Shown here: piece by piece, positions 24,563 through 26,752 of the stretch
Layout: each line of letters begins with the position of its first letter
Numbering within the stretch: the first letter of the stretch is position 1
Source: Corallococcus coralloides
Lineage (GTDB): Bacteria; Myxococcota; Myxococcia; Myxococcales; Myxococcaceae
NCBI GenBank assembly: GCA_013116665.1
Contig: JABFJY010000032.1
Coordinates: forward strand, 1 to 53,109
Length of the DNA: 53,109 nucleotides
Direction of reading: 5' to 3'
Translations under genes and position numbers: made by a program
Notes under the pieces: generated by a model
What the model was told of the DNA's origin: nothing
The model's database searches: none
Seen by the model: only the letters and a program-made list of their open reading frames with translations

Positions 24563-24720
24563 TCAGTGCCTTCTCCCTGCTGCCAGAACGGCCTGTTTAC
24601 GCAATTGTGAGCCAAGGCTCCACTCCGTGACCCACGGGAGGGCCTCATCGCCCGGGGTGTTTGTCACCCGGCCCCGTCCATGCTGGGCTCTCCGCCCCCT
24701 GTTTTCGCCCCGGACCCCGA

Positions 24721-25398
24721 GTGAAAGCCCCGTCCCCCACCGAGCAGCTCGAGCCTCACCGGGAGGCCACGCGCGCCCTGGACTGGGCGCTGCCCTCGCT
24801 CCGGGCGGACCTGGCGGCGGCGGCGCGGCAGCCCTTCCGGGAGACAGGGGCCCAGGAGGACTTCCTGCACCGCCATGACGCACCGGCCCATGAAGCCTGG
24901 GGGCTGGCGCGGACGGAGCGCTTCGAGCGGGCCCTGGCCCGGGTGCGGCGGCTCGCGGACGCGGGCGAGCCGCTGACCTTCGCCCGGATGGTGGAGGTCC
25001 AGTCGGAGCTGCTGGGCGGGCCCACGGGCTTCCGCACCGGGGACGCCTTCGCGTGGGGTGGCGCGCACCGCTATGCGCACGCGCCCGGCCTGGAGGCGGC
25101 CTTCCGCGACAAGGTGGAAGCGGACGCTCGGGAAGAGCGTCACCCGGTGGCACATGCCACGCGGTTGTACCTGGACCTGTGTTTCTTCCACCCCTTCCCG
25201 GACGGCAACGCCCGCGCGGCGCGGCTGTGGCTGGAATACATGCTGCGCCGGGGCCGGCTGCCCACGCCACCGCTGGCGCCCGTGGTGCTGTGGCCCAAGC
25301 GGCCGGGAGACGCGGTGAACTACTCGCGGTTGGCGAGGCTGCTGGCCCGGACCATCGCGGGGCCGGACGCCCCGTGCCGCAACGAGGTGCCTGAATGA
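24721..25398 (+). CDS. Fic/Doc-family (Fido) protein with degenerate active-site motif HPFPDGNARAAR. Start uncertain: TTG at 24661 or GTG at 24721.
   Basis: The Fic core region includes LYLDLCFFHPFPDGNARAARLWLEYML. The motif differs from canonical HPFx(D/E)GNGRxxR by G->A. The stop overlaps the next gene's start (ATGA). Confidence 0.7.
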   Translation: MKAPSPTEQLEPHREATRALDWALPSLRADLAAAARQPFRETGAQEDFLHRHDAPAHEAWGLARTERFERALARVRRLADAGEPLTFARMVEVQSELLGGPTGFRTGDAFAWGGAHRYAHAPGLEAAFRDKVEADAREERHPVAHATRLYLDLCFFHPFPDGNARAARLWLEYMLRRGRLPTPPLAPVVLWPKRPGDAVNYSRLARLLARTIAGPDAPCRNEVPE

Positions 25399-26060
25399 GC
25401 AGCAACGCTTCGGCTTTCACGTGGCGCCGCATCCGCGACAGCCTGGATGCCTACTCACCTCAATCGCTGGCGTCCCGGCTGAGGGAGGCCCTGGCCCCCC
25501 TCCGGACCGGAAGCATCCACACCAGCCGGCTCAAGCAGGCGAAGAACGCCGTGCAGGACCTGCTCCAGGCCGAGCTGGGTCCCTGGTACATCGAGAGCGG
25601 CCTGCCCCTGGGCAATGAAGTGCTGGGGGGCTATTGCTGGTGCCACTCGTTCTTCAACCAGAACCCGCCGCATCGGACCTTGGATGTGGATGAGAACATC
25701 CAGCTCATGCTGGACGCGCTGGAGCGGATCCGTTCGTTCCTGTACGCGCTGGACGGCGTGTATCAGGCCTCGCGCCGTCAGCTGGAGCTGGCGGCTGACG
25801 ACAAGGCTCTCCGGGCGCAGGCGCTCGCGGAAGGGCTGGTGCGGACCGTGGACCTGACGGCGGAGACGACGTCCTGCGAGGAGACCTGGTACCAGGTCGC
25901 GCAGGACGCCATGACGTGGTGCATCGAGGCGATGGGGCTGCCCTTGTCGGAGGCCACGCAGGAGCAACTGGACACGGCCTTCGTCTTCACGTCCTGGGTG
26001 GCGCCTCCCCCGGAGGTGCTCCGTGAGGCGGCGGCGCGGGTGGCGGAGGTGGCCGTATGA
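25395..26060 (+). CDS. Hypothetical protein: unknown family, paralog A of a tandem pair, with conserved GGYCWCH motif
   Basis: 221 aa. Translationally coupled to the Fic gene (ATGA). ~40-45% identical to the next ORF: W.xIRDSL.xY.P, LGPWY.E.GL.LGNE..GGYCWCH.FF, NIQL..DALER. Confidence 0.65.
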   Translation: MSSNASAFTWRRIRDSLDAYSPQSLASRLREALAPLRTGSIHTSRLKQAKNAVQDLLQAELGPWYIESGLPLGNEVLGGYCWCHSFFNQNPPHRTLDVDENIQLMLDALERIRSFLYALDGVYQASRRQLELAADDKALRAQALAEGLVRTVDLTAETTSCEETWYQVAQDAMTWCIEAMGLPLSEATQEQLDTAFVFTSWVAPPPEVLREAAARVAEVAV

Positions 26061-26752
26061 GCCGGCCGGCCCTGGGGCACTGGCGGCTCATCCGCGACAG
26101 CCTGGAGGGGTATGACCCGGAGAAGCTCATCCGGATGCTGCGTGAATACCTGGCGCCGCGCGTGCCCCCGGGGACGCGCAAGCTCACGGACGAGCAGCAC
26201 GACACGATGGCGAAACACATCCAGTGGATGCTCAACCAGAACCTGGGGCCCTGGTACACGGAGACGGGGCTGTATCTGGGCAATGAGAGCTTCGGCGGCT
26301 ACTGCTGGTGTCACCGTTTCTTCCGGCAGAAGCCCACGCCGGACATGCGCGTGGAATACAACATCCAGCTCATCATCGACGCGCTGGAGCGGTCGCGTGA
26401 ATGGCTGTTCAAGCTGGAGGCCCACTTCCAGGCGCTGAAGCGGGACCTGCCCTCGGGCCCGGACGACAATGACATCCGGACGCTGGCCCTGGCGGAGGGA
26501 ATCGTCACCACGATGACCCTCACCATGGACGCCACGGGCTGCGAGGAGGCCTGGTACACCTTCGCGGACGAGGCGCTGTCGTGGATGTTCGACGCCATCG
26601 AGCTGCGCCCCGGCTATCAGGCCGGGAAGCTGATGCGGAAGCTGTTCGCCTTCGAGTCCTGGCACTCGCCTTCCGAGTGGGAGCTTCGCGCTTCATCGGA
26701 GAAGGTGGCGGCGGCCGTCGTGGAGGACGAGGGCCGCCGCCACACGCACTGA
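26057..26752 (+). CDS. Hypothetical protein: unknown family, paralog B of a tandem pair, GGYCWCH motif
   Basis: 231 aa. ATGA overlap with paralog A. Colinear similarity to paralog A over the full length. Confidence 0.65.
   Translation: MSRPALGHWRLIRDSLEGYDPEKLIRMLREYLAPRVPPGTRKLTDEQHDTMAKHIQWMLNQNLGPWYTETGLYLGNESFGGYCWCHRFFRQKPTPDMRVEYNIQLIIDALERSREWLFKLEAHFQALKRDLPSGPDDNDIRTLALAEGIVTTMTLTMDATGCEEAWYTFADEALSWMFDAIELRPGYQAGKLMRKLFAFESWHSPSEWELRASSEKVAAAVVEDEGRRHTH

Follow-up and report, generated by a model that had tools for sequence, protein, structure and literature searches.

We analyzed a 53,109-nucleotide (nt) stretch of DNA from Corallococcus coralloides (the window; ~70% GC), in which three plus-strand open reading frames (ORFs) spanning 24661–26752 encode a Fic protein followed by two paralogs, X1 and X2, of a family that we call X. 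As far as sequence can tell, this system joins an enzyme of known fold to a partner domain that has not been described before and that defines the clade. Across genomes, X and Fic are linked, occur as natural fusions and are conserved. We hypothesized, giving the idea slightly less than an even chance, that X is the obligate partner of the Fic clade with the motif HPFxDGN(A/S/G)R and that it binds Fic and gates the active site of an auto-inhibited AMPylase/deAMPylase-type enzyme. Through nucleotide transfer, Fic enzymes control targets that include DNA gyrase and topoisomerase IV, EF-Tu, BiP, and Rho-family and Rab GTPases of the host, and how their activity is switched on is a question for most bacterial members.

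Linkage between the two proteins was sampled from both sides. From the Fic side, a scan for HPF[PAE]DGNAR in one genome per species (185,579 species) gave 276 confirmed relatives, the best 80 of which were scanned with hidden Markov models (HMMs) derived from X and Fic alignments. Represented in these best 80 of 276 loci are Myxococcota of many families, Planctomycetota, and Actinomycetota such as Streptomyces, Actinoplanes, Dactylosporangium and Kitasatospora; 75 of the 80 carry a same-strand X that is fused or immediately adjacent to Fic. The exceptions are three loci whose contig breaks off at Fic and so lacks the DNA upstream of it (L025, L034 and L039), one in which X lies ~1 kb downstream on the opposite strand (L043) and one, from Rubripirellula, with no X (L027). 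From the X side, a degenerate DNA pattern based on X motifs alone, which is blind to Fic and biased toward X variants that carry D-A-W-Y and a GAC codon, returned 45 metagenome loci. True X loci number 41, of which 36 have Fic fused or adjacent, 3 are truncated on the relevant side and 2 are orphans; Fic is present in 36 of the 38 informative loci. Individual locus look-ups agree with this linkage. An earlier note on this DNA had asked whether X homologs are always Fic-adjacent, and the two orphans mean that the rule is strong without being absolute.

X and Fic occur in three arrangements. Fic precedes X in Myxococcaceae and in L026 and L050; X precedes Fic as overlapping genes in Streptomyces (for example, L073), in the planctomycetotal locus L004 and in L086; and a single X–Fic polypeptide of ~400–550 residues is the form found in most other Myxococcota and Planctomycetota. 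The Pfam Fic domain lies C-terminal to X in 21 of the 32 longest X-family representatives, and the motifs of the X–Fic fusions read HPFxDGN(A/S/G)R. Reciprocal linkage combined with fusion is the classic Rosetta-stone signature, from which physical and functional coupling of X and Fic is predicted. Clustering of all flanking genes revealed no other family conserved across lineages beside X–Fic. In one uncultured bacterium, two complete X–Fic fusion genes stand in tandem (L029, 3242–5753).

X1 aligns with X2 at 43% identity (215 residues; E = 9e-60), close to the ~40% that the earlier note had given for them, and the two proteins have in common the block LGPWY..GL.LGNE..GGYCWCH.FF. That note did not recognize their family, and databases do not name it either: neither protein matches Pfam or NCBIfam, seven diverse X members have no passing match in Pfam-A, NCBIfam or PADLOC, no PDB entry matches X by sequence or fold, and a BFVD fold search was negative. 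Across these resources, X lacks any known family or fold. The note had proposed a new Fic-associated partner class, to be abandoned if the paralogs matched a well-characterized family unrelated to Fic and their homologs showed no conserved linkage to it; because the linkage is tight and reciprocal, natural fusions included, and no characterized family matches, the proposal passes that test. Word-index homolog searches undercount the family, with 12 Myxococcaceae clusters returned for an X2 query and 16 for a 100-sequence X alignment. An exhaustive profile HMM search of 1.84 billion representatives found 147 X proteins at E ≤ 1e-3, of which 47 reach E ≤ 1e-10. The AlphaFold2 (AF2) model of X2 is all-α (predicted local distance difference test (pLDDT) score of 85.8, predicted template modeling (pTM) score of 0.84).

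We determined conservation in 100 diverse standalone X members, using X2 numbering; all positions below are on the plus strand of the window unless stated otherwise. The most conserved block of the family is T160-G-C-E-E164-A-W-Y in X2 (26534–26557), with T159-S-C-E-E163-T-W-Y as its counterpart in X1 (25869–25892): T160 is present in 73% of members, D/E164 in 87%, A/S/G165 in 89%, W166 in 98% and Y167 in 82%. The F199-x-S201-W202-x-x-P205 motif of X2 (26651–26671) is conserved at 91–93% (F199, 91%; S201, W202 and P205, 93% each), and G64 (90%), W66 (97%) and W176 (90%) are similarly retained. Among Fic-linked X domains, W166 and S201 are each found in 133/133, Y167 in 127/133 and T160 in 124/133. 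The GGYCWCH loop motif lies at 25626–25646 in X1 (C81, C83 and H84) and at 26294–26314 in X2 (C83, C85 and H86). The Cys/His site suggested by the earlier note holds in part, with C83 (86%) and H86 (78%) kept family-wide and C85 present in just 46%; S87 is found in 71% of members. A heme-c-like or zinc site at C-W-C-H was rejected as a family feature, given the low conservation of C85 and the variable Cys–His spacing (CWCH versus WCCxxHS).

Some X-family proteins have unusual architectures. P0201 (387 residues) contains two X domains within one polypeptide, and P0098 (328 residues) has an N-terminal ‘YADWLEERGE’ segment ahead of X that resembles the TIGR02996 repeat-companion domain. Matches of P0164 to many Pfam families, WC-rich among them, were dismissed, as the sequence is repetitive and no stretch is individually significant.

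The 225-residue Fic protein scores 36.1 bits with Pfam PF02661 (E = 1.2e-8), for which the curated gathering cut-off is 24, and has the features of the fold, namely the helical core, the β-hairpin flap and an active-site loop at the N terminus of the next helix. Its active-site motif, HPFPDGNARAAR (25189–25224), has Ala where GNGR has its second Gly, as the earlier note had read it, and otherwise matches every specified position of the strict HxFx(D/E)GNGRxxR signature. HPFxDGNARxAR is invariant in 25 Fic sequences down to 30% identity. Across 105 X–Fic pairs, the second-Gly position is A in 98, S in 4 and G in 3, so that small residues interchange there within the clade. In solved Fic structures, the second Gly contacts the β-phosphate solely via its backbone NH (PMC3667792), a group that Ala retains. 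The window Fic keeps the His, Asp, Asn and both motif Arg residues of nucleoside monophosphate transferases, and with its catalytic residues intact, nucleotide transfer is the presumptive default activity. Actinomycete members (L046–L085; for example, L073, 3857–4516) read HPFxDGNARxx(M/L/A/F) and have no second motif Arg, and their X partners read T-G-A-E-(C/S)-G-W-Y; this branch may be a sub-clade with different chemistry.

A candidate inhibitory element is present in the Fic protein itself. The earlier note had reported that both the upstream antitoxin and the inhibitory motif are missing. The first part of this claim stands, as the 158-nt gap between Fic and the divergent upstream gene contains no credible small ORF, and the second does not: T42-G-A-Q-E46-D47 (24844–24861) is a near match to (S/T)xxxE(G/N), with Thr and Glu in place and D47 deviating at the last residue. 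This assignment draws on clade conservation, an hmmalign table and the AF2 model of P0060, a natural X–Fic fusion (pLDDT of 89.7, pTM of 0.72, ordered linker; its alignment, A5, combines fused, Fic-only and X-only rows). Within the window's Fic clade (Myxococcaceae and the planctomycetotal loci L004 and L024), the consensus is E-T-x-x-Q-E-(D/N/R)-(F/Y)-(L/I), with E46 invariant and T42 nearly so, and the L004 ortholog reads T-D-D-Q-E-N, an exact (S/T)xxxE(G/N). In the P0060 model, the equivalent T249xxxE253 opens a helix (251–263) directly before the first Fic core helix (265–283), and class II Fic proteins carry their inhibitory helix at that position, before the first core helix (PMC3667792). 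A profile of the Fic N-terminal 110 residues had no match among PDB sequences that would place the cis T-x-x-x-E, residue by residue, on an inhibitory helix of known structure. At this site, most fused members and every actinomycete one read D-G-H-x-x-(F/Y)-I, with no Glu.

Because the catalytic residues are kept and a cis T-x-x-x-E appears to occupy the class II inhibitory position, the window Fic would be an auto-inhibited AMPylase/deAMPylase-type enzyme. In known Fic proteins, the second motif Arg binds both the ATP γ-phosphate and the inhibitory Glu, and the stimulus that relieves inhibition has been stated to be unknown (PMC3667792). The T-x-x-x-(D/E)-(A/S)-W-Y block of X formally resembles (S/T)xxxE(G/N), and we compared it between 133 unique Fic-linked X domains split by whether the partner Fic has the second Arg (101) or not (32). 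X164 is D or E in 99/101 domains whose Fic has this Arg and in 13/32 in which it is M, L, A or F (then C in 10 and S in 9); X165 is A in 83/101 of the former and G in 20/32 of the latter. All other conserved X positions are equally conserved in the two groups. A mutual information scan with average product correction (129 pairs) ranked 50,621 inter-domain position pairs, and those that join R168, the second Arg, to X179, X165 and X164 stand at 11, 33 and 41, respectively. Because the second Arg binds the γ-phosphate and the inhibitory Glu, this co-change is the pattern expected of an acidic X residue that comes close to that Arg, and it suggests that X may reach the Fic active site.

These patterns are consistent with the following model. 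The ancestral-looking form would be one polypeptide with X N-terminal and Fic C-terminal, which in several lineages would have been split into two translationally coupled genes, ordered Fic then X in Myxococcaceae. X would bind the Fic domain and gate its active site, placing the acidic residue of T-x-x-x-(D/E)-A-W-Y near the second motif Arg, and its Trp/Cys/His-rich loop would be a candidate input site for a ligand, a redox signal or a protein. Contact of X with the active site, the sense in which X regulates Fic, and the cosubstrate and target of the enzyme are the parts of this model that we infer. A more specific version, which we regard as possible but doubtful, is that X represents a fourth mode of Fic control: a ~220-residue helical sensor, acting in trans in either gene order or fused, would insert its acidic residue against the second Arg. 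A signal sensed by the loop would thus determine whether a GNAR Fic is inactive, AMPylating or deAMPylating, and in actinomycetes, where the Arg and the acidic residue have both gone, their loss would mark a change of cosubstrate or chemistry.

Several observations weigh against gating of Fic by X. The co-change of X164 with the second Arg is essentially one phylogenetic event, in Actinomycetota, and many columns that are clade or indel markers rank higher in the mutual information scan. In both models, T-x-x-x-(D/E) of X sits in a loop before a helix, unlike the first helical turn of the canonical inhibitory helix. With a candidate Glu already present in cis in the window clade, a single Arg would have two acidic residues competing for it. 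Nor is X strictly Fic-specific, because it is also fused to a non-Fic domain and exists as two orphan genes. P0104, P0106, P0112, P0120 and P0207 (504–529 residues) join X to another C-terminal region of ~300 residues that has no Pfam match and no Fic motif, and no Fic lies within several kilobases of the orphans L093 (4770–5534) and L094 (up to 796). Judging by eye, we take one orphan to lie beside a large helicase-like ORF and the other upstream of a short-chain-dehydrogenase-like ORF.

The pair could instead be a FicTA-like toxin–antitoxin or defense module, with Fic as a growth-arresting toxin, X as a large antitoxin that neutralizes it by binding and X1 as a spare copy; we consider this unlikely. 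The class I paradigm is a Fic toxin neutralized by a partner that supplies an acidic residue (PMC3667792), and the ATGA-overlapped, translationally coupled operon, the variable gene order, the lack of conserved neighbors outside Myxococcaceae and the weak matches of Fic to PADLOC Fic-type defense candidates would all fit such a module. So would its presence on 20 large PLSDB plasmids (0.25–1.7 Mb) of Streptomyces, Kitasatospora and Embleya (for example, NZ_CP107961.1, 498951–499706), where RefSeq labels the pair ‘hypothetical protein’ and ‘Fic family protein’. However, X is ~220 residues long with no DNA-binding domain and no PADLOC match, and the covalent X–Fic fusion, the commonest form outside Myxococcaceae and Streptomyces, is ill-suited to a labile antitoxin. 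In Myxococcaceae, the module is inherited vertically at a fixed syntenic site; the X–Fic unit is absent from IMG/VR viral contigs; and the Fic already has a cis inhibitory-type motif.

The near-invariant hydroxyls of T160, Y167 and S201 in Fic-linked X raise another alternative, to which we assign a small chance: X could be an adaptor that docks the real target or could itself be the substrate, modified at one of these residues. Accessory domains bind targets in other Fic proteins, and the TPR motifs of FICD are described as mediating BiP specificity (PMC8065156). An enzyme fused to its sole substrate across hundreds of lineages would be unusual, however, and the conservation of Trp, Phe and Pro is more reminiscent of a core that serves structure or binding. 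Neither role explains the relaxation of X164 in just those pairs whose Fic has lost the second Arg.

We also weighed whether degeneration to GNAR has left Fic an inactive pseudoenzyme in a purely structural or binding pair, which we judge improbable. Deviating motifs are generally taken as a sign of altered activity (PMC3667792), the anion-binding nest has lost its second Gly to a substitution, and actinomycete members have also lost the second Arg. But the 25 sequences mentioned above all keep the H, F, D, G, N and R of the motif and its second R, G, S and A interchange within the clade, Ala retains the backbone NH through which alone the second Gly contacts phosphate, and the ratio of nonsynonymous to synonymous substitution rates (dN/dS) for Fic is 0.25–0.30. 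Finally, incidental adjacency of unrelated hypothetical genes is effectively refuted by reciprocal linkage (75/80 and 36/38) across three phyla and three arrangements, with >20 independent fusion representatives.

The reading that we favor is an obligate complex in which X would control or direct a putative nucleotide transferase of GNAR type with class II-like traits. In the window, X is present in two copies. The single-copy X proteins of JPH2, Citreicoccus, Pyxidicoccus, Hyalangium and several Corallococcus species group with X2, and X1 is found in some Corallococcus loci only (L006, L007, L009, L011, L012, L015 and L018). X2 is therefore the partner gene of ancestral type and the ortholog of the X that other Myxococcaceae carry once. 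Because of this grouping and the restriction of X1 to some Corallococcus, X1 is best explained as a young, lineage-specific tandem duplicate inserted between Fic and X2. X1 retains every family-conserved residue. In C. coralloides KYC2213, a close relative of the window strain (L010, 4681–5124), it matches just HMM positions 5–151 and appears truncated.

The Fic gene probably starts at GTG 24721 (24721–25398), from which the 225-residue orthologs align; TTG 24661 is merely the start of the longest possible ORF. X1 (221 residues; 25395–26060; GenBank NOJ93237.1) and X2 (231 residues; 26057–26752; NOJ93238.1), both annotated as ‘hypothetical protein’, start at an ATG within an ATGA that also contains the stop codon of the gene before; these overlaps, at 25395–25398 (Fic/X1) and 26057–26060 (X1/X2), bear out the three overlapping plus-strand genes of the earlier note. 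In ortholog comparisons, X1 (dN/dS of 0.26–0.59) and X2 (0.22–0.53) are, like Fic, under purifying selection, and all three are therefore real, constrained genes. A promoter and terminator scan of 24400–27000 found none, a result that is uninformative at 70% GC.

The divergent gene upstream of Fic (23642–24562, minus strand) encodes a DAGK_cat/YegS-like kinase and neighbors Fic in 18 Myxococcaceae loci. It was rejected as a functional partner, as it recurs solely in these loci, in keeping with synteny by descent. By eye, we take the overlapping plus-strand ORFs upstream of it (21512–23652) to be CheB-like (response regulator plus methylesterase) and CheR-like (methyltransferase) and the convergent gene downstream of X2 to be Hsp20-like. 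Farther downstream, 29683–30042 contains three copies of a ~44–90-nt repeat spaced 137–139 nt apart, each with the palindrome CTGTCCGACTGTCGGACAG, and no convincing long ORF.

X–Fic is a defined pair that is genetically tractable in Myxococcus-type and Streptomyces hosts. It bears on the form that a new Fic regulatory or targeting module can take and on the roles of Fic proteins in developmentally complex soil bacteria, and its clade bears on whether the Gly-to-Ala change and loss of the second Arg alter Fic chemistry. The X domain family, whose members are now publicly labeled ‘hypothetical protein’, could be added to Pfam and InterPro.

Compared with known Fic systems, the X–Fic clade combines familiar and distinct elements. 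Like Doc (GNKR, a kinase), AnkX (DANGRxxV, phosphocholine transfer) and the GNTRxx[!R] group, it deviates at the HxFx(D/E)GNGRxxR nest, and its actinomycete members likewise have no last Arg. By contrast, the window Fic keeps both Arg residues, the Asp and the Asn and reads DGNARAAR, which is neither the Doc nor the AnkX motif; the DOC_P1 model (TIGR01550) gave a sub-threshold match to the Streptomyces homolog alone. GNAR is not among the five Fic motif groups of Khater & Mohanty 2015 (PMC4454073). Matches of the window Fic to the PADLOC models SoFic, PDC-S04 and PDC-S24 are partial and weak (E from 3e-7 to 2e-3), and X1, X2 and the Streptomyces X match no PADLOC model. Class II Fic proteins (FICD/HYPE, SoFic and BT_2513) carry a cis N-terminal inhibitory helix. 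The clade differs from them in having GNAR in place of GNGR and, in the window, D rather than G or N after the Glu, in the absence of that Glu from most fused and actinomycete members, and in X being unrelated to known Fic accessory domains (TPR, wHTH and Fic_N). Class I FicTA systems have a small upstream antitoxin with (S/T)xxxE(G/N), whereas the partners here are downstream and 221 and 231 residues long; more generally, X is a 220–230-residue protein, upstream or fused elsewhere, with no sequence or fold similarity to known antitoxins. As in the class I pairs VbhT/VbhA, EcFicT/FicA and Fic-1/AntF, however, Fic and its partner form a translationally coupled unit in which a separate protein, through a T-x-x-x-(D/E)-(A/S) motif formally close to that of the antitoxins, may present an acidic residue to the second Arg.

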